Shown here: piece after piece, positions 49,108 to 59,364 of the stretch | Layout: every line of letters begins with the position of its first letter | How positions within the stretch are numbered: the first letter of the stretch is position 1 | Assembly (NCBI GenBank): GCA_966211955.1 | Contig: CBIHOF010000002.1 | Coordinates: 91,581 to 155,580 of the forward strand | Reading direction: 5' to 3' | Source: an uncultured Comamonadaceae bacterium | Lineage (GTDB): Bacteria; Pseudomonadota; Gammaproteobacteria; Burkholderiales; Burkholderiaceae_C | DNA length: 64,000 nucleotides | Notes under the pieces: model-generated | Told to the model about the DNA's origin: nothing | The model's input: the letters and a program-made list of their open reading frames with translations, nothing else | Database searches by the model: none | Made by a program: the position numbers and the translations under genes

Positions 49108-49177
49108 ATTCAAAGAGTCTGTGTATTGGCATGCCAGTTGCAAACGGTGCCCAGCATCGAAGCTCCTGGATGCACCC

Positions 49178-51394
49178 ATGTCCCCACATCACCTGGCGCG
49201 CGGGCGCTTGCCCGCGATGCTCGCGACGGCCTTCGCCTTCGCATCGCACGCGGCCTTCGCACAAGACGCCAAGCCCAGCGTGCTTGCGCCGGTCACCGTC
49301 ACCGCGGAGCGTCGCGCGGAGAACATCAAGGACGTACCGATCGCCGTCAGCACGCTCGGCGGCGAAGCGCTGGACGTTCTCAACTCCGGGGGCGAGGATG
49401 TCCGCTTCCTTTCCGGCCGCGTACCCAGCCTGAACATCGAGTCGTCCTTCGGCCGTGCATTTCCGCGTTTCTACATCCGTGGCTACGGGAACACCGACTT
49501 CCGCCTCAATGCCTCGCAACCCGTCTCGCTGATCGTCGACGACGTGGTGCAGGAGAACCCGATCCTCAAGGGCTTTCCGATCTTCGACACCGAGAAGGTC
49601 GAAGTGCTCGCCGGCCCGCAAGGCACGCTCTTCGGGCGCAACACGCCCGCCGGCGTGGTGAAGTTCGATTCGGTGGCGCCGGGCCGCAAGGCCGGTGGCT
49701 ACTTCAACGGCAGCGTGGGCAGCTTCAACAGCGTCAACCTCGAAGGTGCGTACACGATGCCCTTGAGCGAGCAGTGGTCGTCGCGCGTGTCCGTGCAGTC
49801 GCAACACCGCGGCGACTGGGTGAAGAACACCTTCGCCGCCGGCCCCACGCAAGACCTGGAAGGCTACGGCGACAACGCGCTTCGTGCGCAGTTCCTCTAC
49901 CAGCCCAGCCGCGATTTTCAAGCGCTCGTCAACGTGCATGCACGTGATCTCGACGGCAGCGCGCGGCTGTTCCGCGCGAACATCATCAAGCCCGGCACGA
50001 ACGGGTTCGTCGATGGCTTCGACCCGAAGACCATCTCCATCGACGGCAAGAACGAGCAGCACGTGAACACGGGCGGCACGAGCCTGCGCCTGAAGTGGGC
50101 GCTGGACGGCGTGACGCTGCACGCCATCACCGGCTATGAAAGCGTGCACTCCTTCAGCCGCGGCGACATCGACGGCGGCTACGGTGCCGTCTTTGCGCCG
50201 CCATCGGGGCCGGGTGTCATCCCCTTCCCGTCCGAGACGGCCGATGCGATGCGTGGCCACGGCCAGTTGACGCAGGAGTTCCGCGCCGAGTCCACCGCGC
50301 CCGGCCCGCTCAAGTGGCAAGGCGGCGTCTACGCCTTCAGCGAGCGCTATCACATCGACAGCAGCAGCTACGACTCGCTGGGCGGCGGTGCGAAGACAGG
50401 GCTCACCACCACGCAGCAGAAGAACAATGCCTGGGCGGTGTTCGGTTCGCTCAACTACGACGTGAGTCCGCAGCTCAAGGTGCGCGGCGGCCTGCGCTAT
50501 ACGCACGACAAGAAGGAGCTCGCGACCGACCCGGACGCATCGCTCGTCACGACCAACGGCCTGGCCACCAGCACCAGTGATTCCAAGGTCAGCTGGGACC
50601 TGAGCGGCACCTACGCCGTGACGCCGGACGCCAACCTGTATGCCCGCATCGCGACGGGCTTCCGCGGATCGAGCATCCAGCCCGCCTCAGCCTTTGGCGC
50701 GATGTCATCGGCCGGGCCCGAGACCACCACGTCCTACGAGATCGGCGCCAAGGCCGACGTGTTCGATCGCCGTGCCCGCGTGTCCTTCAGCCTCTTCCAC
50801 TACGACGTGCGCGACCAGCAGCTCACGGCGGTGGGCGGCACGAGCAACGCGACGCGCTTGCTCAACGCGAAGAAGTCCATGGGCCAGGGCCTGGAAGGCA
50901 CCGTCGAGGCTTACCTCGCCGAGAACCTGCTCGTGACGGTGAACGGCAGCTACAACCTCACGAAGATCAAGGACCCGGGCCTCGCGGTGGGCGTGTGCGC
51001 GGCTTGCACGGTGCTCGACCCGATGAACGCCGCGGGCCAGGCCATCATCGACGGCAACCCGCTGCCCAACGCGCCGCGCTGGATCGGCAACGTGACGCTG
51101 CGCTATGGCGTTCCCGCGGCCAGCGGCGGCGAGTACTTCGTCTTCACCGACTGGTCGTACCGCAGCCGCGTCAACTTCTTCCTCTACGAATCGACCGAGT
51201 TCACCGGCCGCGCGCTGCTCACCGGCGGCCTGCGCGCGGGCTATTCGTGGGCCAACGGCAAGTACGAGGCGGCGCTCTTCGGGCGCAACATCACCAACCA
51301 GATCCGCATCACCGGCGGCATCGACTTCAACAACCTCACGGGCTTCATCAACGAGCCGCGCATGTGGGGCGCGCAGTTCAAGGCGATGTTCTGA
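49178..51394 (+). CDS. TonB-dependent receptor
   Basis: Signal peptide, VTVTAERRAEN..DVPIAVS, plug motif VEVLAGPQGTLFGRNTPAGVV, C-terminal WGAQFKAMF. Confidence 0.93.
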   Translation: MSPHHLARGRLPAMLATAFAFASHAAFAQDAKPSVLAPVTVTAERRAENIKDVPIAVSTLGGEALDVLNSGGEDVRFLSGRVPSLNIESSFGRAFPRFYIRGYGNTDFRLNASQPVSLIVDDVVQENPILKGFPIFDTEKVEVLAGPQGTLFGRNTPAGVVKFDSVAPGRKAGGYFNGSVGSFNSVNLEGAYTMPLSEQWSSRVSVQSQHRGDWVKNTFAAGPTQDLEGYGDNALRAQFLYQPSRDFQALVNVHARDLDGSARLFRANIIKPGTNGFVDGFDPKTISIDGKNEQHVNTGGTSLRLKWALDGVTLHAITGYESVHSFSRGDIDGGYGAVFAPPSGPGVIPFPSETADAMRGHGQLTQEFRAESTAPGPLKWQGGVYAFSERYHIDSSSYDSLGGGAKTGLTTTQQKNNAWAVFGSLNYDVSPQLKVRGGLRYTHDKKELATDPDASLVTTNGLATSTSDSKVSWDLSGTYAVTPDANLYARIATGFRGSSIQPASAFGAMSSAGPETTTSYEIGAKADVFDRRARVSFSLFHYDVRDQQLTAVGGTSNATRLLNAKKSMGQGLEGTVEAYLAENLLVTVNGSYNLTKIKDPGLAVGVCAACTVLDPMNAAGQAIIDGNPLPNAPRWIGNVTLRYGVPAASGGEYFVFTDWSYRSRVNFFLYESTEFTGRALLTGGLRAGYSWANGKYEAALFGRNITNQIRITGGIDFNNLTGFINEPRMWGAQFKAMF

Positions 51395-51519
51395 GGGACT
51401 GAGGGTCGGCCGCGCCGGGGTGGCGCAGCCGCGCGTGGCGTGATGCAGCCTGATGCGATGTGAGGGCAGGGAGGGCGGGCTATGCTTGCCCCCCTCACTC
51501 ACTCACCCAGGGACGCGCG

Positions 51520-51894
51520 ATGCCTTCTGCCGACACCCTCGAGCGCTTCATTGCCATGGTCGAGAGCAACGACCATGCGCGCGCCTGCGAGGAGTTCTAC
51601 ACCGCCGGGTCCTCCATGCAGGAGAACCAGTCGCCGCCGCGCATCGGCCGCGATGCGCACGTTGCCAACGAACGCAAGGTGCTCGGTCGCGCGAAGTCGG
51701 TGACGTCGCGATGCGTGCGGCCGGTGCTGGTCAACGGCGACCATGCGGTGATCCGCTGGATCTTCCGCTTTGAATGGCTGGACGGCAGCATCACCCACAT
51801 GGAAGAGCTGGCCTGGCAGCGCTGGGAGGGCGAGCGCATCGCCGAGGAGACCTTCTTCTACGACCCTGCGCAGCGCGTTCCGCGCATGCCTTGA
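51520..51894 (+). CDS. NTF2/SnoaL-like protein
   Basis: 124 aa; EEFY..SSMQEN, GRDA, VIRWIFRF, EELAWQRW, ETFFYDP. Confidence 0.8.
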   Translation: MPSADTLERFIAMVESNDHARACEEFYTAGSSMQENQSPPRIGRDAHVANERKVLGRAKSVTSRCVRPVLVNGDHAVIRWIFRFEWLDGSITHMEELAWQRWEGERIAEETFFYDPAQRVPRMP

Positions 51895-51918
51895 CGCCCA
51901 AGGTCCCGCTGTCGCTGC

Positions 51919-53346
51919 ATGTCCCTGCTTCCGCGCATCTCCTTCCGCCAGCTGCTGATCGTCGCCTTCCTCGGGGTGGCAGCGCTGCTGGCAGCGGCGT
52001 CGTTGAACGGCCTCATCACCATCGAGCGGCTCTTGTCGCGAAGCCGCGAGGGCGCCGATCGCGCGATCGCGGCCACCGCGGCGGTGCAGCGGCTGACCGA
52101 GCGCAGCACCGCGATGGAACGTGCCGCGCGGCAATACCTCGTGCTCGACGACCCATCGTTGCGCGACGCCTTCGGCCAGGCCACGCGCGATGGCGTGGCG
52201 GCGCTCGACGAGCTTCAGCGCAACGGCCTCCCGCTCGAGCGGGCGCGGGCCTGGCAGGACGTGGCGGACCGCGTCGCCCACCAGCTGGACATGCCCCGCA
52301 ACGTGGCCCGCCTCGCGACCCGCTCGCTGGGCGACGCGTTTCGCGACTTGGCCGCCATCAACGCGCAAGTCGCCGAACAGGTGCAGACCGCGGCGCGCGC
52401 CCGCAACGAGACGCTGCGGCGCGACCTGGAAGAAGGGCGCCTCGCGCTCGCGCGCCAGGTGCTCGGTGCCATCGGCATCGCCTTGCTGATGGCGCTCGTC
52501 TTCAGCGTGTGGCTGTCGCGCCCGCTGCGCCGCGTGGTGCTCGCCATCGACGGCCTGGGCGCGAACCGGCTCGACCAGCCCATCGACATCGCGGGGCCCG
52601 CCGACGTGCGCCAACTGGGACGCAGCCTCGATGACCTGCGCGCGCGCCTGGCCAAGCTCGATTCGGACAAGGCCCGCTTCTTGCGGCATGTCTCGCATGA
52701 GCTCAAGACACCGCTGGCCGCACTGCGCGAGGGCGTGTCGCTGCTCGAGGACGGCGTCGCCGGCGAGCTCAACGCCAACCAGCGCGAGGTCGCCCGCATC
52801 CTGCGGCAGAACACGCAGCTGCTGCAAAGCCAGATCCAGGACCTGCTTGACTTCAACGCGGCGGTGTTCGAGGCGCAGAACCTCGCACGCAAGCGGGTGG
52901 AGCTGCGCGCGCTGCTGCAACGCGTGGTCGACGACCAGCGGCTGCAGGTGCAGGCCCGGCAGCTCGATGTGCGCATCGACGGCGGCCCGGCCTGGACCGA
53001 GGCCGATCCCGACAAGCTCGCGACGGCCATTGGTAACCTCTTGTCCAACGCCATCCGGTTCAGCCCGGTGGGCGGTACGATCAAGTGCAGCGTTTCGGAG
53101 CACGGCCGCGAGCACTGGATCGAGATCGCCGATTCAGGGCCCGGGGTGGCGGATGCCGATCGCAACCGTGTCTTCGAGCCGTTCTACCGAGGGGAGCGAC
53201 AGCCGAAGAACGCCGCGCGCGGCAGCGGCATCGGGCTGTCCATCGTCCATGAATACATCGCCGCCCATGGCGGTCGCATCTCGCTGCTGGGCGACGGGCC
53301 CGGCGCTACCTTTCGAATTGAATTGCCTCATTCCGATGTCCATTGA
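51919..53346 (+). CDS. glrK: sensor histidine kinase GlrK/QseE
   Basis: Two TM helices, HAMP, HVSHELKTPLAALREG, NLLSNAIRFSP, DSGPG, GSGIGLSIV. Confidence 0.85.
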   Translation: MSLLPRISFRQLLIVAFLGVAALLAAASLNGLITIERLLSRSREGADRAIAATAAVQRLTERSTAMERAARQYLVLDDPSLRDAFGQATRDGVAALDELQRNGLPLERARAWQDVADRVAHQLDMPRNVARLATRSLGDAFRDLAAINAQVAEQVQTAARARNETLRRDLEEGRLALARQVLGAIGIALLMALVFSVWLSRPLRRVVLAIDGLGANRLDQPIDIAGPADVRQLGRSLDDLRARLAKLDSDKARFLRHVSHELKTPLAALREGVSLLEDGVAGELNANQREVARILRQNTQLLQSQIQDLLDFNAAVFEAQNLARKRVELRALLQRVVDDQRLQVQARQLDVRIDGGPAWTEADPDKLATAIGNLLSNAIRFSPVGGTIKCSVSEHGREHWIEIADSGPGVADADRNRVFEPFYRGERQPKNAARGSGIGLSIVHEYIAAHGGRISLLGDGPGATFRIELPHSDVH

Positions 53347-53971
53347 ATCGTTCGCGCGACGCTGCAGTGCCTGGCTGGCGGTGTGCCTGCTGTCTGCCTG
53401 CGTGCCGTTCGCCCCGCGCAAGGAACCCGCGCCCGTGCCCGTGGAGGCGGCCGCCTCTGCGCCGGAGCCTGCGGCCTCGGCACCGCCCGTGCCCGCGGCC
53501 ACCGCGGCCACCGCGGCCGACATGGCCGCCCGCGACATGCTGGTCTTCAACGACCGCGCACGGCAGATGCCCGCGGCAGACCTGGCACGCGAGATCGGTG
53601 CCCGCAACCCCGACCCGAGCAACCCTCGCGCAATGCTCGAGCTCGCCATTCTCCTGGGCTACACCAAGACCAACGGCGACGTCGGGCGCGCGCTCGCGCT
53701 CGTGGATGCCCTCGTGCGTCAGGCCTCGCCGGAGGCCGCGCCCTACCAGCCGCTCGCGCGGTTGCTGCAGATGCGCTACCTCGACCAGCGACGGCTGGAG
53801 GAGCAGCTCGAAAAGCAGAACGCGCAGGCCCGCGACAGCCAGCGTCGCATCGACCAGCTCAACGAGAAGCTCGAGGCGCTCAAGGCCATCGAGCGCAGCC
53901 TGTCGACGAGGCCCGCGGCGAGCGGTGGTGCGCCAGCGTCGGCGCCGCCGCCGAAGGCCGGCGCGCAATGA
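53336..53971 (+). CDS. qseG: QseG/YfhG-like outer-membrane lipoprotein
   Basis: Lipobox LLSAC; C-terminal coiled coil KLEALKAIERSLSTR; lies between kinase and regulator. Confidence 0.75.
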   Translation: MSIESFARRCSAWLAVCLLSACVPFAPRKEPAPVPVEAAASAPEPAASAPPVPAATAATAADMAARDMLVFNDRARQMPAADLAREIGARNPDPSNPRAMLELAILLGYTKTNGDVGRALALVDALVRQASPEAAPYQPLARLLQMRYLDQRRLEEQLEKQNAQARDSQRRIDQLNEKLEALKAIERSLSTRPAASGGAPASAPPPKAGAQ

Positions 53972-53984
53972 CGGGCAACTCGCG

Positions 53985-55358
53985 GTGAAGGAGCACATCC
54001 TCGTCGTCGACGACGACCCGGACCTGCTGCAGCTGCTGTCCATGCGGCTGTCGGCGGCCGGCTACCGGGTGACGGCGGTGGCATCCCCCGAGGCGGCGCT
54101 CGCGCAGGTCGACGTCGAGCGTCCGCAGGTGGTGCTGAGCGATGTGCAACTGCCCGGGCGTGACGGCATCGCGCTCTTCGATGAAATCCGCGTGCGGCAT
54201 CCGTCGCTGCCGGTCATCCTGCTGACCGCGCACGGCAGCATTCCCGACGCGGTCGAGGCGACATCGCGCGGCGTCTTCAGCTACCTCACCAAGCCCTTCG
54301 ACGGCAAGGCGGTGCTCGACAAGATCGCGCAGGCGATTGCCCTGTCCACGCCCGCGAGTGACGGTGACGTGACGGGCCAGGAGTGGCGCTCGGAGATCGT
54401 GAGCCGGTCGAGCCGCATGAGCGAGCTGCTCAACGAAGCGCGTCTGGTCGCGCGCTCGGATGCGAGCGTGCTGCTGCGTGGCGAGAGCGGCAGTGGCAAG
54501 GAGCTGCTCGCCAAGGCGATCCATCGCGCGAGTGCACGCGCATCGCGCGCGTTCGTGGCAGTGAACTGCGGCGCGATTCCTGAAGCGCTGCTCGAATCGG
54601 AACTCTTCGGCCACGTGAAGGGCGCGTTCACCGGCGCCCTGGCCAACCGGCGTGGCCTGTTCCAGGCGGCCGACGGGGGCACGCTCTTCCTCGACGAGAT
54701 CGGCGACATGCCGCCCGCCTTGCAGGTGAAGCTGCTGCGTGTGCTGCAAGAGCGCTCGGTGCGGCCGGTGGGCGCGAGCGAATCGATTCCGATCGACGTG
54801 CGCGTCATCTCCGCCACGCACCGCGACCTCGACAGCGCGATGGCCGACGGGCAATTTCGCGAAGACCTCTACTACCGGCTCAACGTGGTCACGCTCACGC
54901 TGCCCACGCTCGGCGAACGGCGCGAGGACATTGCGCTGTTGGCCAACCATTTCCTCGCGAAGTTCGCGGCCAAGTACGCCAAGCGCCTCAACGGCTTCGC
55001 GCCCGACGCGCTCAAGGCGTTGACCATGGCCTCGTGGCCCGGCAACGTGCGCCAGCTCAACAACGTGGCCGAGCAGGTGTGCGCACTGGCCACCACGCCC
55101 ATCGTGCCGCTGAGCCTGGTGCAACGTGCGCTGCGCGTGCCGGGTGTCGAGGTGCTGACGCTCGCGCAGGCCCGGCAGCGCTTCGAGCGCGATTACCTCG
55201 TCGGGCTGCTCAAGCTCTCCGATGGCAACGTCGCCGATGCGGCTCGATTGGCCGATCGCAACCGGACGGAGTTCTATCGGTTGCTGCAGAAGCATGGCCT
55301 GACGCCGGGGCAGTTTCGGTCAGATTTCACGGTTTCCGAGCCGCCTGTCGCCGACTAG
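53985..55358 (+). CDS. glrR: sigma54-dependent response regulator GlrR/QseF
   Basis: HILVVDDDP receiver, GESGSGKE, ELFGHVKGAFTGA, WPGNVRQL, RNRTEFYRLL HTH typical of GlrR. Confidence 0.9.
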   Translation: MKEHILVVDDDPDLLQLLSMRLSAAGYRVTAVASPEAALAQVDVERPQVVLSDVQLPGRDGIALFDEIRVRHPSLPVILLTAHGSIPDAVEATSRGVFSYLTKPFDGKAVLDKIAQAIALSTPASDGDVTGQEWRSEIVSRSSRMSELLNEARLVARSDASVLLRGESGSGKELLAKAIHRASARASRAFVAVNCGAIPEALLESELFGHVKGAFTGALANRRGLFQAADGGTLFLDEIGDMPPALQVKLLRVLQERSVRPVGASESIPIDVRVISATHRDLDSAMADGQFREDLYYRLNVVTLTLPTLGERREDIALLANHFLAKFAAKYAKRLNGFAPDALKALTMASWPGNVRQLNNVAEQVCALATTPIVPLSLVQRALRVPGVEVLTLAQARQRFERDYLVGLLKLSDGNVADAARLADRNRTEFYRLLQKHGLTPGQFRSDFTVSEPPVAD

Positions 55359-55363
55359 CGACA
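55346..55363. promoter_or_regulatory. GlrR-type upstream activator site 1
   Basis: TGTC-GCCGACTAGC-GACA is an exact TGTC-N10-GACA match and overlaps the glrR stop codon. Confidence 0.7.
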
Positions 55364-55379
55364 ACAGAAAGTCCTTGCT

Positions 55380-55392
55380 TATCAAGGACTTG
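55380..55392 (+). promoter_or_regulatory. putative IHF binding site
   Basis: TATCAAGGACTTG is an exact match to WATCAANNNNTTR. Confidence 0.55.
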
Positions 55393-55411
55393 CGTATGAC
55401 GCACTGCAGCA

Positions 55412-55429
55412 TGTCGCCATTCGGCGACG
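55412..55429. promoter_or_regulatory. GlrR-type upstream activator site 2
   Basis: TGTC-GCCATTCGGC-GACG; shares TGTCGCC-N4-RGCGAC with site 1. Confidence 0.65.
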
Positions 55430-55525
55430 CTTTGACGCACTTCCCCTCGTGAAAACCCTCGCCCGCAGCGCGACAGGAGCTGCTCGGCCGTTCCAAGTCC
55501 TTGTCACGGCAGGACTTTTTCTCAC

Positions 55526-55541
55526 TGGCACGGACCTCGCA
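55526..55541 (+). promoter_or_regulatory. sigma54 -24/-12 promoter upstream of opgG
   Basis: TGGCACGGACCTCGCA is a near-consensus match to TGGCACG-N4-TTGCW. Confidence 0.75.
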
Positions 55542-55606
55542 ATGGAGAGGGCTGGCGGCCTGCCGGTCGCCTCGCCATCCATTGCATTCAGAGGGGTTCC
55601 GTCATC

Positions 55607-57154
55607 TTGTCTGCGCCGTCGTCGACGCTTGCCTTTGCTCGCGCCCCACTGCCACGCTGCTTGCGCCGTGCGCTGGCCTTGCTTGCCCTCGCGGCACCGC
55701 TGCTGGCGCAAGCATTCGGCTTCGATGACGTCGCCGCGCGGGCCAGGGCCGAATCGCAAGCGCCCTACCGTGCGCCCGCCGTCACCGCGCCGGCGGAACT
55801 GAAGGCGCTCAGCTACGACCAGTACCGCGACATCCGCTTCAAGCCCGAGCGCGCGCTCGGGCGCCAGGACGGCCTGCCCTTCGAGCTGATGTTCTTCCAC
55901 ATCGGCAAGTTCCAGACGCTGCCCGTGAGCATCAACGAGATCGGGCCGACTGGCGTGCGCCACATCGGCTTCGACCCGCGCGACTACGACTACGGCAAGA
56001 ACAAGCTCGACACCGGCCGCTGGCCTGATCTTGGCCACGCCGGCTTCCGCGTGCACTACGCGCTCAACGCGCCCGGCTACAAGGACGAGCTCGCCGTGTT
56101 CCTCGGGGCGAGCTACTTCCGTGCGCTCGGCGCGGGTCAGCGCTACGGCTTGTCGGCACGTGGCCTTGCGATCGATACCGTGGGCGGCAAGGGCGAAGAG
56201 TTCCCTCGGTTCAAGGAGTTCTGGATCGAGCGGCCCGCGGCCAATGCGACTGCGCTCACGATCTATGCGCTGCTCGACTCGCCGCGTGCGGCTGGCGCCT
56301 ATCGCTTCGTGCTGCATCCGGGCACTCAGACTGCAGTCGATGTCACCGCGCGGCTGTACCTGCGCGAAGGTGTCGCCACGCTCGGCATCGCGCCGCTCAC
56401 GAGCATGTTCCAGCATGGCGAGAACAGCCCGCGAAGCGATGAATTCCGCCCCGAGGTGCATGACTCCGACGGGCTGATGATCCAGGGCGGCGATGGCGAA
56501 TGGCTGTGGCGCCCGCTCGTGAACCCCGGTCGCGCACAGGTGTCGTCGTTCACCGTGCACGACGTCAAGGGCTTCGGCCTGATGCAGCGCGACCGGTCTT
56601 TCGCGAACTACGAAGACCTGGAAGCGCGCTACGAGCGCCGGCCGAGCGCCTGGGTGGTGCCGCAAGGCGACTGGGGCGCCGGTCGCGTCGAGATGCTGCA
56701 GTTGCCCACGCCCGACGAGACCAACGACAACATCGTTGCCTACTGGACGCCCGAGCGCCTGCCTGCACCGGGCCAGCCGCTCGAGTTGTCGTGGCGCGTG
56801 CTCTGGCAGGGCGATGCACAGGCACACCCACCCAACGGCTGGACGGTGCAGTCGCGGCTCGGCCGCGGCTTCAAGCAGCTCGGCCCCGACGAGTTCCAGT
56901 ACGTCGTCGACTTCGCCGGCCCCGCGCTCGATGCGCTCGGCGCCGATGCACGCGTCGAGGCCGTTGCCACGGCCGTCGCCAACGCGCGGCTCATCGAACA
57001 GAACGCCTACCCCAACGAAGCCCGCGGTGGCTACCGCATGACGCTGCACGTCAAGCGCATCGACCGCAGCAAGCCGGTGGAGTTGCGCGCCTTTCTTCAA
57101 CACGGCTCTCACGCATTGACGGAAACATGGACCACGCTGATTCCATCCGATTGA
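55607..57154 (+). CDS. opgG: glucan biosynthesis protein G
   Basis: LSYDQYRDIRF, GLSARGLAIDT, EEFPRF, RPEVHDSDGL, GFGLMQRDR, DETNDNIVAYW. TTG start uncertain. Confidence 0.95.
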   Translation: MSAPSSTLAFARAPLPRCLRRALALLALAAPLLAQAFGFDDVAARARAESQAPYRAPAVTAPAELKALSYDQYRDIRFKPERALGRQDGLPFELMFFHIGKFQTLPVSINEIGPTGVRHIGFDPRDYDYGKNKLDTGRWPDLGHAGFRVHYALNAPGYKDELAVFLGASYFRALGAGQRYGLSARGLAIDTVGGKGEEFPRFKEFWIERPAANATALTIYALLDSPRAAGAYRFVLHPGTQTAVDVTARLYLREGVATLGIAPLTSMFQHGENSPRSDEFRPEVHDSDGLMIQGGDGEWLWRPLVNPGRAQVSSFTVHDVKGFGLMQRDRSFANYEDLEARYERRPSAWVVPQGDWGAGRVEMLQLPTPDETNDNIVAYWTPERLPAPGQPLELSWRVLWQGDAQAHPPNGWTVQSRLGRGFKQLGPDEFQYVVDFAGPALDALGADARVEAVATAVANARLIEQNAYPNEARGGYRMTLHVKRIDRSKPVELRAFLQHGSHALTETWTTLIPSD

Positions 57155-59364
57155 GCCGGCCTGCCGGCAACCGCAGACGCACTCGTGCCGGGCTTGCCGC
57201 CTCGCATGCGCCATCGACGCCGCGCGCGAGCGCGCCGCCCATCCACCGCGGCTCGATGGTGCCGGTGCCGTGGGTCGGGTTCTTGGGCAGCCTGGCGGCG
57301 GCATTGACCGGGCGCAGTGCGGCGACGCCGGACGTGTCCGTGCAGCCTCCTCAGGCCTGGGAAGCGGCCGCCTCTGCGCGCCGCCGCGTGTTGCTCGCGC
57401 TCACGCTGCTGAGCGCATCGGGCGCGGCCGCATTGCTCTGGCATGCACAGCCGATCGGCGATGCGCCAGTGCTGCGCATCGCGCAGATCGCCCTCTATGC
57501 CTTGCTGTTCGGTTGGGTGTCGGCCGGCTTCATCACCGCGATGATGGGTTTCGTCGTGCAACTGCGTGGCGACAGGCACAGCCTGCGCGCGGCCGACGTG
57601 CGCCACCAGGCCATCTGCGCTTCGGCGCGCACGGCGGTCATCATGCCGATCTGCAACGAGCAGGTGTCGGCGGTGTTCGCCAACCTGAGCGCGACGCTCG
57701 AATCGCTTGCCTCGACGGGCGCATCGCGGCTCTTCGATCTCTTCATCCTTTCCGACTCCAGCGACCCCGCCGTGCGTGCCGAGGAGCTCGCCGCCTGGGC
57801 GCAGCTGCGCGCCACGCTTGGCGACGGGGCGCGCATCCACTACCGCTGGCGCCAGCGCCGCACCCGGCGCAAGGCCGGCAACGTGGCCGACTTCTGCCGG
57901 CGCTGGGGCCGCGACTATCGCTACATGGTGGTGCTCGATGCCGACAGCGTGATGAGCGGCGATGCCCTCGTGACGCTCGTGCGCCTGATGGAAGCCAACC
58001 CCACCGCCGGCATCGTGCAGACCGCGCCCGCGGCCTGCGGGCTGTCGACGCTGCATGCGCGAGCCCAGCAGTTCGCCGGCCGCGTCACGGGGCGGCTCTT
58101 CACTGCCGGCATGCAGTACTGGCAGCTCGGGGAATCGCACTACTGGGGCCACAACGCCATCATCCGCGTCGAGCCCTTCATGAAGCATTGCGCACTCGCA
58201 CCGCTGCCCGGCAAGGGCGGCCTGAGCGGCGACATCATGTCGCACGATTTCGTCGAGGCGGCACTCATGCGCCGTGCCGGCTACCGCGTGTGGCTCGTGT
58301 CCGACCTCGAAGGCAGCTACGAGCAGCAGCCGCCCAATTTGCTCGAAGAGCTTCGGCGCGACCGCCGCTGGTGCCAGGGCAACCTGCAGAACGCGAGACT
58401 CATCGCCGAGCCGGGCCTGCATGGCGTGCATCGCGCGATGCTTGCGACCGGCGCGATGGCGTACCTGTCGGCGCCGTTGTGGCTGGCCTTCGTGATGCTC
58501 GGTGCGGCGACATGGTTCTCGACGGGCCGCGTTGCGATGGGCCTCGACGGCGCAATGCCGGTGGAGATGGTGGCGCTGTGGTCATGCACCTTCGCGATGC
58601 TCGTGCTGCCGCGCCTGCTGGGCGTCGTTGCGCTGCTGCTGAACGGCCAAGCCAGGACGTATGGCGGCGGCTGGGCCCTGCTGAAGGGTGCCGTGCTCGA
58701 AGGCGTGTTGTCGGCATTGCAGGCGCCGGTGCGCATGGTGGCGCACAGCATCTTCGTGGTGGTGGCGCTCACCGGCATCAAGCTCGATTGGAAATCGCCC
58801 CCGCGCGAAGCGCAGGCCGTGACGTGGAAGGACGCGTCGGTTCCTTTCGCGCCCGTGTTCGTCGCCGTGGCCGCAGCGCTTGCCGCGACGCTCGCCATCG
58901 ACGCGTCGCTCGCGATGTGGCTGTTGCCGGTCGCATTGCCGCTGCTGCTCGCCATCCCGCTCGCCGTGGCCACCAGCAAGCCGGCGCTTGGCGAATTCAT
59001 TCGCGATGATGCGAAGCTCCTGACGATTCCCGAAGAGACGCAGCCGCCTGCCGTGCTGCGCGCCGCCTGGAGCCTCGCGAGCCAGCCATCGCGGCCCACG
59101 CGATTGCCGGAAGTGCTCAGCAACCCCGCGCTGTTCGAGGTGGTGCACCAATCCATGGGCTCGCGCCAGACCGCCCATGGCGATCGTGGCCTCGCCCGGC
59201 TCGGCCTGCTCGATCGCGTGATGGTGGAGCAGGACCTGCACGCCATGACGCCGCGCGAGTGCATGTGGATGCTGAGCGAGCCGCAGCAGATCAGCCGCTT
59301 GCGCGACCGCCTCGCGTCGAACACGGCGGTGAACGCATCAAGCTTCGCGCGAAGCCTGCACTAA
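57127..59364 (+). CDS. opgH: glucans biosynthesis glucosyltransferase H
   Basis: MPICNE, RKAGNVADF, LDADS, HYWGHNAIIR, SHDFVEAALMRRAG, RDRRWCQGN. Confidence 0.95.
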   Translation: MDHADSIRLSRPAGNRRRTRAGLAASHAPSTPRASAPPIHRGSMVPVPWVGFLGSLAAALTGRSAATPDVSVQPPQAWEAAASARRRVLLALTLLSASGAAALLWHAQPIGDAPVLRIAQIALYALLFGWVSAGFITAMMGFVVQLRGDRHSLRAADVRHQAICASARTAVIMPICNEQVSAVFANLSATLESLASTGASRLFDLFILSDSSDPAVRAEELAAWAQLRATLGDGARIHYRWRQRRTRRKAGNVADFCRRWGRDYRYMVVLDADSVMSGDALVTLVRLMEANPTAGIVQTAPAACGLSTLHARAQQFAGRVTGRLFTAGMQYWQLGESHYWGHNAIIRVEPFMKHCALAPLPGKGGLSGDIMSHDFVEAALMRRAGYRVWLVSDLEGSYEQQPPNLLEELRRDRRWCQGNLQNARLIAEPGLHGVHRAMLATGAMAYLSAPLWLAFVMLGAATWFSTGRVAMGLDGAMPVEMVALWSCTFAMLVLPRLLGVVALLLNGQARTYGGGWALLKGAVLEGVLSALQAPVRMVAHSIFVVVALTGIKLDWKSPPREAQAVTWKDASVPFAPVFVAVAAALAATLAIDASLAMWLLPVALPLLLAIPLAVATSKPALGEFIRDDAKLLTIPEETQPPAVLRAAWSLASQPSRPTRLPEVLSNPALFEVVHQSMGSRQTAHGDRGLARLGLLDRVMVEQDLHAMTPRECMWMLSEPQQISRLRDRLASNTAVNASSFARSLH

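Follow-up and report, generated by a model that had tools for sequence, protein, structure and literature searches.

We found a candidate regulatory circuit for periplasmic glucan synthesis in a stretch of 64,000 nucleotides from an uncultured Comamonadaceae bacterium (GenBank assembly GCA_966211955.1, contig CBIHOF010000002.1, positions 91,581 to 155,580 of the forward strand; the whole stretch is called the window below). Five co-oriented genes on the plus strand occupy positions 51919-59364. The first three, glrK, qseG and glrR, are predicted to encode an envelope-facing three-component sensor made up of a kinase in the inner membrane, a lipoprotein as its accessory and a response regulator of the sigma-54 enhancer-binding type, and they are followed by opgG and opgH, the genes for osmoregulated periplasmic glucans (OPG). 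Between glrR and opgG, a spacer of 248 bp contains two predicted GlrR boxes, an exact consensus site for integration host factor (IHF) and a predicted sigma-54 promoter, all four at the coordinates claimed in a preliminary description of this DNA. GlrK-QseG-GlrR probably drives opgGH through this sigma-54 promoter, which would make glucan synthesis an inducible output of the system; very probably, glucan synthesis is switched on here by GlrK-QseG-GlrR instead of the small RNA (sRNA) route of E. coli. The preliminary description had proposed this wiring, and each of its testable parts held: the homology of the genes, a glmY-like layout, the linkage in about 36 genera, and the way the elements follow opgG.

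The mechanism that we propose starts at the envelope. GlrK, together with QseG, would sense an envelope or periplasmic condition, for which we suggest the periplasmic osmotic or envelope state, and would phosphorylate GlrR. Phosphorylated GlrR may then bind both TGTCGC-N6-GCGACA boxes (55346 and 55412), and IHF would bend the DNA at sites on either side of box 2, bringing GlrR to the promoter. There, GlrR would remodel sigma-54 RNA polymerase at TGGCAC-N5-TCGCA (55526-55541) and open the closed complex. Transcription is predicted to begin near 55552, with the GC at 55539-40 taken as -13/-12, and to pass a leader of about 55 nt into opgG-opgH; since it would run into opgGH, OPG synthesis would be an inducible output of the GlrK/QseG sensor. 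We infer GlrR binding, sigma-54 dependence, IHF dependence, the start site and the stimulus.

OPG synthesis is famously osmoregulated, and we know of no dedicated transcriptional regulator that has been established for opgGH. No paper in the literature searched links GlrR/QseF, GlrK or sigma-54/RpoN to opgGH/mdoGH or to periplasmic glucans, which agrees with the preliminary description in treating the circuit as not known to be described; the sigma-54 survey of Francke et al. 2011 lists QseF-like activators and does not mention glucans (PMC3162934). The parts are all of known kinds, and what is new is the opgGH output and its strict conservation. The stimulus and the direct regulon of QseE/QseF (GlrK/GlrR) are poorly defined, and the finding bears on both. 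In about three dozen genera the wiring has a single target, with one promoter, one operon and a measurable product, and such simple, testable wiring is suited to learning what GlrK/QseG senses and how the periplasmic glucan content is set.

Control region and its conservation

The spacer combines the features of a GlrR-dependent promoter: at least two TGTC-N10-GACA sites more than 100 bp upstream, a -24 GG and a -12 GC, and IHF sites that flank the proximal box (Table 1). Boxes 1 and 2 sit 180 and 114 bp upstream of TGGCAC, which agrees with the distance of about 100-180 bp to the -24 box given for the enhancers before, and box 1 overlaps the glrR stop codon TAG (55356-55358).

Motif scans used simple patterns, and single motifs of these kinds are common: TGTC-N10-GACA with at most one mismatch gave 20 matches against 23 expected, and the sigma-54 pattern five matches against 2.7 expected; of the single motifs, the IHF consensus alone stood out, with one match against 0.13 expected. 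The combination, however, is unique. In the 5.88-Mb genome, pairs of sites of the TGTCG-N8-CGACR type no more than 150 bp apart occur at this locus only, and among 28 strict sigma-54-like sites in the genome the one before opgG is the only one with such boxes upstream. A chance origin was therefore rejected, because the pair together with the promoter is unique in the genome and conserved. We also rejected a GlrR regulon beyond opgGH in this genome, where looser scans returned only isolated, weak single-site matches. One other site in the window, TGGCATGCCAGTTGCA at 49127-49142 (+), has one mismatch to the sigma-54 consensus and lies at the start of the open reading frame (ORF) of a TonB-dependent receptor (49121-51394); no GlrR boxes were seen near it, and it is probably a chance match.

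Loci from Variovorax, a Rhizobacter metagenome-assembled genome (MAG), Pseudorhodoferax and Pseudacidovorax, supplemented by genome searches, served as relatives for comparison. When ten spacers were aligned, identity appeared as islands at box 1, box 2, an IHF-like YAAnnnnTTGATW site and the -24/-12 elements, between flanks that cannot be aligned. Of 40 related loci (roughly 38 genera), 35 show the architecture in full, and the remaining five have mostly partial versions of it. Its spacing varies little: the distance from box to box is 66-69 bp (67 bp in 28 of the 35 loci), and TGGCAC follows box 2 after 91-114 bp, most often after 110-113 bp. Over the 35 loci, the consensus reads TGTCGCnGAnnnGCGACA for box 1, TGTCGCnnnnnGGCGACA for box 2 and TGGCACnGGGnTTGCn for the -24/-12 elements, with boxes of the TGTCGC-N6-GCGACA type. 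Footprinting, which the preliminary description had put forward as a check across Burkholderiales, recovered the architecture in these 35 of 40 loci; the wiring of GlrR to opg is not order-wide and marks one GlrR clade within the family.

The exact IHF consensus at 55380, to which the preliminary description had drawn attention, is real, but this distal site is kept in only a subset of the relatives, and the site conserved most widely falls in the interval from box 2 to the -24 element. Of 36 loci, 22 have an IHF-like site between the boxes; in L002, L099, L103 and L116 it is oriented as in the window. The proximal site, YAAnnnnTTGATW, some 30 bp upstream of the -24 element, was seen in 33 of 35 loci, the window being one of the two exceptions.

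The IHF-like sites of the window share a short repeat. Three copies of the 9-mer AAGTCCTTG are present in the spacer, the third of which (55494-55502) forms the degenerate proximal IHF-like site. The other two make up a palindrome with perfect 9-bp arms, AAGTCCTTG-cttat-CAAGGACTT (55369-55391), around the exact IHF consensus, which includes its right arm; this palindrome may represent two opposed IHF half-sites or else a weak hairpin that follows glrR. A similar palindrome, AAAGTCCTGgcgcgaCAAGGACTT, stands between the two boxes of another genome, G214 (L142).

Sensor, regulator and product

E. coli GlrK, QseG and GlrR find their best counterparts in the genome in the three genes upstream of the control region. 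The regulator carries a REC domain, a sigma-54 AAA+ domain with GAFTGA and an HTH domain, and is orthologous to GlrR. Along its full length it shares 57% identity with E. coli GlrR; its Asp53 takes the position of the phospho-acceptor Asp56, Walker A and GAFTGA are retained, and the two proteins have the same HTH core, RNRTEFY. With E. coli GlrR as the query, the best match in the genome was the glrR of the window, at 479 bits against 278 for the next. The kinase is homologous to GlrK over its whole length, including the sensor domain. It aligned with PDB entry 9m08_C at residues 2-471 (E 1.6e-58), is 32% identical to E. coli GlrK (residues 59-472), with 475 aa in both, and was the best match in the genome to an E. 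coli GlrK query (179 bits against 103 for the next).

The middle protein, whose gene the preliminary description had named without coordinates, is more divergent in sequence. Compared with E. coli QseG, it gave a BLASTP E of 1e-4 and an hhalign probability of 24%, limited to a C-terminal motif, and phmmer against the PDB returned no match. Its AlphaFold model (predicted local distance difference test score, pLDDT, 82) was closest to two crystal structures of QseG from E. coli O157:H7, 7x6g_A and 7x6f_A, which were the best two of 350,542 PDB chains (probability 1.00, template modelling score, TM, 0.62, E 0.012). The lipoprotein may thus be counted as QseG on its predicted fold and its context, not on sequence alone.

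Downstream of the control region, OpgG (MdoG family) is followed by OpgH (MdoH glucosyltransferase), which together make up an opgGH (mdoGH) operon, and the 3' end of opgG overlaps opgH by 28 nt. This opgG is the sole MdoG-family gene of the genome, and opgGH its sole operon for periplasmic glucan synthesis. The GC content of third codon positions (GC3), 0.84-0.88, backs the frame chosen for each gene, including the gene for the QseG-like lipoprotein (0.88). The genome has two copies of rpoN outside the window (G000 C2:15371-15835 and C3:245451-245924), both above the Pfam Sigma54_DBD cut-off.

The product of the promoter appears to be the operon and not a small RNA. An Rfam search of 51000-56500 with E values up to 1 gave no match, and the GlmY model found no match in the genome, with the E. 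coli control detected. The gap of 24 bp before glrK is real, as the ORF at 51460-51894 has a GC3 of 0.84, so that the preliminary description was right to see no room there for a glmY-like sRNA, and the genome has no GlmY elsewhere. The leader at 55552-55606 contains no terminator and no significant structure (z = 0.18). We therefore rejected an sRNA output: a GlmY/GlmZ-type small RNA was not found as the product, and the predicted promoter reads into opgG after about 55 nt. As far as its sequence allows us to judge, the control region would work like a glmY promoter but is not a glmY or glmZ gene.

The start of opgG itself is conserved among close relatives. L082-L084 keep both the Shine-Dalgarno-like GAGGG and the TTG start, and L085 keeps the TTG start; all of these loci come from the same genus. 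The 5' end of the predicted leader (55554-55571) includes a 7-bp GC-rich hairpin, GGCGGCC-tgcc-GGTCGCC, which is not obviously conserved in relatives.

Table 1. Genes and predicted control elements of the glrK-opgH locus (positions in the window)
Feature	Position	Strand	Remarks
glrK/qseE-like sensor histidine kinase gene	51919-53346	+	475 aa; HAMP, HisKA, HATPase_c (Pfam)
qseG-like lipoprotein gene	53336-53971	+	211 aa; ATG start; lipobox LLSAC; long C-terminal helix ending LEALKAIERSLSTRP
glrR/qseF-like sigma-54-dependent response regulator gene	53985-55358	+	457 aa; GTG start; REC, Sigma54_activat (AAA+ with GAFTGA), AAA lid, HTH (Pfam)
GlrR box 1 (distal enhancer, predicted), TGTCGCCGACTAGCGACA	55346-55363	.	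Exact TGTC-N10-GACA; only exact match in the window
Distal IHF-like site, TATCAAGGACTTG	55380-55392	+	Exact WATCAANNNNTTR; single match in the 64-kb window against 0.13 expected
GlrR box 2 (proximal enhancer, predicted), TGTCGCCATTCGGCGACG	55412-55429	.	One mismatch; 66 bp after box 1
Degenerate proximal IHF-like site, CAAGTCCTTGTCA	55494-55506	-	Followed by a T-run at 55516-55520
Predicted sigma-54 promoter, TGGCACGGACCTCGCA	55526-55541	+	-24 GG at 55527-28, -12 GC at 55539-40; one mismatch to TGGCAC-N5-TTGCW
Predicted opgG leader	55552-55606	+	About 55 nt; Shine-Dalgarno AGAGGGG at 55590-55596, 10 nt before TTG
opgG (mdoG), periplasmic glucan biosynthesis protein gene	55607-57154	+	515 aa; signal peptide; TTG start; MdoG 627 bits (Pfam)
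opgH (mdoH), glucan glucosyltransferase gene	57127-59364	+	ATG start; MdoH NF003960 1012.8 bits, cut-off 829 (NCBIfam)

Assignment of the promoter and rival explanations

A family sample with one genome per genus (200 genera) contained a GlrR orthologue in 45 and OpgH in 58. Forty genera carry the GlrR clade of high identity (at least 71%), and in 36 of them glrR is immediately followed, in the same orientation, by opgH (19) or opgG-opgH (17). Within the genus of the window, all five genomes with GlrR show the glrR-opg linkage, four have opgH without GlrR, and seven have neither.

Two genomes with a disturbed gene order separate the control region from glrR. In G214, glrR lies 51 kb from opgGH and is followed by none of the elements (L108); the distant opgG (L142) keeps both boxes, 68 bp apart, and the IHF site, with CAAGTCGTTGATA and TGGCACAGGCGTTGCG. 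In G171 (L143), an inserted gene separates glrR from the promoter, which, like the boxes, adjoins opgG and not glrR. The inserted gene has about 240-265 codons (roughly 1650-2950 of L143, in the orientation of glrR), and calling it Fic-like is a guess from a motif seen by eye. Conversely, 15 genomes with opgGH and no GlrR had neither a box pair nor a strict sigma-54 site at the expected distance upstream of opgG (13 genomes) or opgH (two genomes). Taken together, these genomes assign the control region to opg.

In the opgH-first form, found in 19 of the 36 syntenic genera (L001, L003, L004, L098, L101-L103, L106 and others), the promoter precedes opgH alone. Variovorax sp. OV700, Pseudacidovorax intermedius and Pseudorhodoferax sp. 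Leaf265 have this form. Upstream of the 19 unlinked opgG genes of such genomes, neither a box pair nor a strict sigma-54 site was seen at the expected distance, so that control follows opgH, the controlled operon being the one that contains it. In opgH-first genomes, only the glucosyltransferase step would then be under GlrR/sigma-54 control.

Several observations weigh against control of opgGH by GlrR and sigma-54. The statistic for the co-occurrence of GlrR and opg (odds ratio 134, p 7e-24) ignores phylogeny, and 20 genera have opgH without GlrR, so that GlrR control is not obligatory for OPG genes. Among NCBIfam models, the regulator scores highest with GlrR (604 bits; NtrC reaches 409), and the GlrR score lies below the equivalog cut-off of 763. 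The homology of the lipoprotein to QseG consists of a fold match at E 0.012 and a short sequence motif. Within the control region, the proximal IHF-like site of the window is degenerate, with TTGTC where relatives have TTGAT, and the -12 element reads TCGC, not TTGC, as it also does in relatives of the same genus. A consensus scan found no sigma-70 promoter in 55000-55800, and such a scan recognises sigma-70 promoters of high-GC bacteria poorly. Finally, glrR and opgG are co-oriented without a clear terminator between them, and read-through from the glrK operon could feed opgGH.

The last two points lead to the strongest rival explanation, in which most opgGH transcription would come from read-through of the glrK-qseG-glrR operon or start at a sigma-70 promoter that has escaped recognition, and the sigma-54 promoter would be a conditional boost or nearly silent. 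All five genes point the same way, and the hairpin at 55369-55391 lacks the plus-strand T-tail that would mark it as a terminator after glrR. A strictly activator-dependent promoter would moreover make OPG fully conditional in a genome with a single opgGH, and E. coli glmY combines a sigma-54 with a sigma-70 promoter (PMC3045617). We nevertheless regard this explanation as unlikely. The scan of 55000-55800 yielded no sigma-70 consensus, and the sigma-54 architecture is intact in 35 loci, including those of G214 and G171, where glrR is not directly upstream; its conservation in so many loci indicates that the promoter is used.

A second explanation accepts a real sigma-54 promoter of opgGH and has another enhancer-binding protein activate it, with the adjacency of glrR reflecting synteny only. 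The genome would offer candidates, as tblastn with E. coli GlrR matched 30 contigs (one match per contig) and thus many sigma-54 activator-like genes, and TGT-N10-ACA is also the NifA-type site; the short GlrR motif by itself is common. Against this stand the extended box TGTCGC...GCGACA, which equals ABS2 of E. coli glmY, and the identical HTH core of GlrR. The boxes also occur upstream of opg only together with this GlrR clade, in none of the 15 upstream regions of genomes without GlrR, and GlrR orthologues of other families have the same boxes before a different cargo. Activation by another protein is therefore highly improbable. That the elements belong to glrR (as its 3' end, for autoregulation or for termination) or make only a short separate RNA, with opgGH downstream by coincidence, has a next to negligible chance: box 1 does overlap the glrR stop codon and enterobacterial GlrR-dependent promoters do make sRNAs, but opgG keeps the boxes and promoter even where glrR lies 51 kb from it or is split off by an inserted gene. 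Against the short-RNA alternative, which the preliminary description had named as refuting its proposal, stand the mere 55 nt or so from the predicted start to the opgG start codon, with no terminator, no Rfam match and no GlmY in the genome.

Comparison with known GlrR systems

In Enterobacteriaceae, GlrK(QseE)-QseG-GlrR(QseF) acts on the sigma-54/IHF promoters of glmY and glmZ (Reichenbach 2009; Goepel 2011, PMC3045617; Goepel 2018, PMC6075780); it is the closest known system and has the same gene order of kinase, lipoprotein and regulator. Boxes of the glmY/glmZ type bind GlrR, as shown by mutation and electrophoretic mobility shift assay (EMSA), IHF sites flank the proximal box, the distal IHF site is essential (PMC3045617), and phosphorylation of GlrR at Asp56 stimulates activation (Goepel 2011, PMC3045617). 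In the glmY promoter of E. coli (NC_000913.3), the activator-binding site (ABS) ABS2, TGTCGCTTTCTGGCGACA, is followed by an IHF site and, 63 bp later, by ABS3, and TGGCAC lies 108 bp after ABS3. The corresponding spacings are 66 and 114 bp in the window, compared with 63 and 108 bp in E. coli; box 2 of the window resembles ABS2, and its distal IHF-like site takes the position of the glmY IHF site between ABS2 and ABS3.

The two promoters differ in their output, which is the protein-coding opgGH in the window and an sRNA in glmY, and in their place, downstream of glrR in the window and upstream of glrK in E. coli. In addition, the window has two boxes where glmY has three, and no overlapping sigma-70 promoter was detected in the window. 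The glmY-type promoter module is, on this comparison, older and more widely used than its sRNA, and the sRNA output of enterobacteria may be one of several rewirings.

Enterobacterial GlrR has glmY, glmZ and rpoE as its known direct targets. The GlrR-dependent sigma-54 promoter of E. coli rpoE bears the label P2 (reportedly in Klein et al. 2016). The locus described here resembles rpoE in that GlrR would act directly on a protein-coding gene of envelope homeostasis from a sigma-54 promoter; a passage of the 2018 report (PMC6075780) likewise refers to a QseF/GlrR-dependent sigma-54 promoter of rpoE. Unlike rpoE, which encodes a sigma factor and has several other promoters, the target in the window is the OPG operon, and the sigma-54 promoter is the only recognisable one.

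With opgGH of E. coli and Dickeya, the locus shares the same two enzymes, an overlapping two-gene operon and a tie between OPG and envelope sensing. In enterobacteria, OPG acts upstream of RcsCDB and EnvZ-OmpR as a modulator (PMC4726272, PMC6218677); in the window, by contrast, a dedicated sensor appears to lie upstream of opgGH and to act on it via sigma-54.

GlrR orthologues of other Burkholderiales, which are 56-67% identical to the GlrR of the window, have genes for glycine-zipper, EF-hand, BON or DUF4197 proteins downstream. These loci share with the window the GlrK/GlrR module and the boxes and -24/-12 elements downstream of glrR, and differ in their cargo, which consists of small exported or membrane proteins and not of OPG enzymes. 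A pattern scan found boxes and -24/-12 elements in L087, L089 and L095, only the -24/-12 elements in L006, and neither in L005.

All of these GlrR-linked cargos are envelope or periplasmic proteins, which fits a sensor of the periplasmic state. We tentatively consider it possible, if rather doubtful, that GlrK/QseG senses the state of the periplasm (osmolarity, crowding or OPG level), that its original outputs were direct sigma-54 promoters of genes that condition the periplasm, namely those for OPG synthesis in the family of the window and for BON/OsmY-like, glycine-zipper/SlyB-like and EF-hand proteins elsewhere in Burkholderiales, that GlrK-QseG-GlrR and opgGH of this bacterium make up a closed homeostatic loop for the periplasmic glucan content, and that the GlmY route is a later rewiring. 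If true, such a loop would name the long-sought regulator of OPG transcription in one lineage and point to the disputed stimulus of QseE/GlrK.

The genes downstream of glrR in other Burkholderiales and in a MAG labelled as Gammaproteobacteria include glycine-zipper 2TM genes (L089 and L095; SlyB-like), a BON gene (L087) and a DUF4197 gene (L005). In L006, glrR is followed by genes for two secreted EF-hand proteins, one of them with a BON domain, and several of the GlrR loci without opg have two or more envelope genes in a row.

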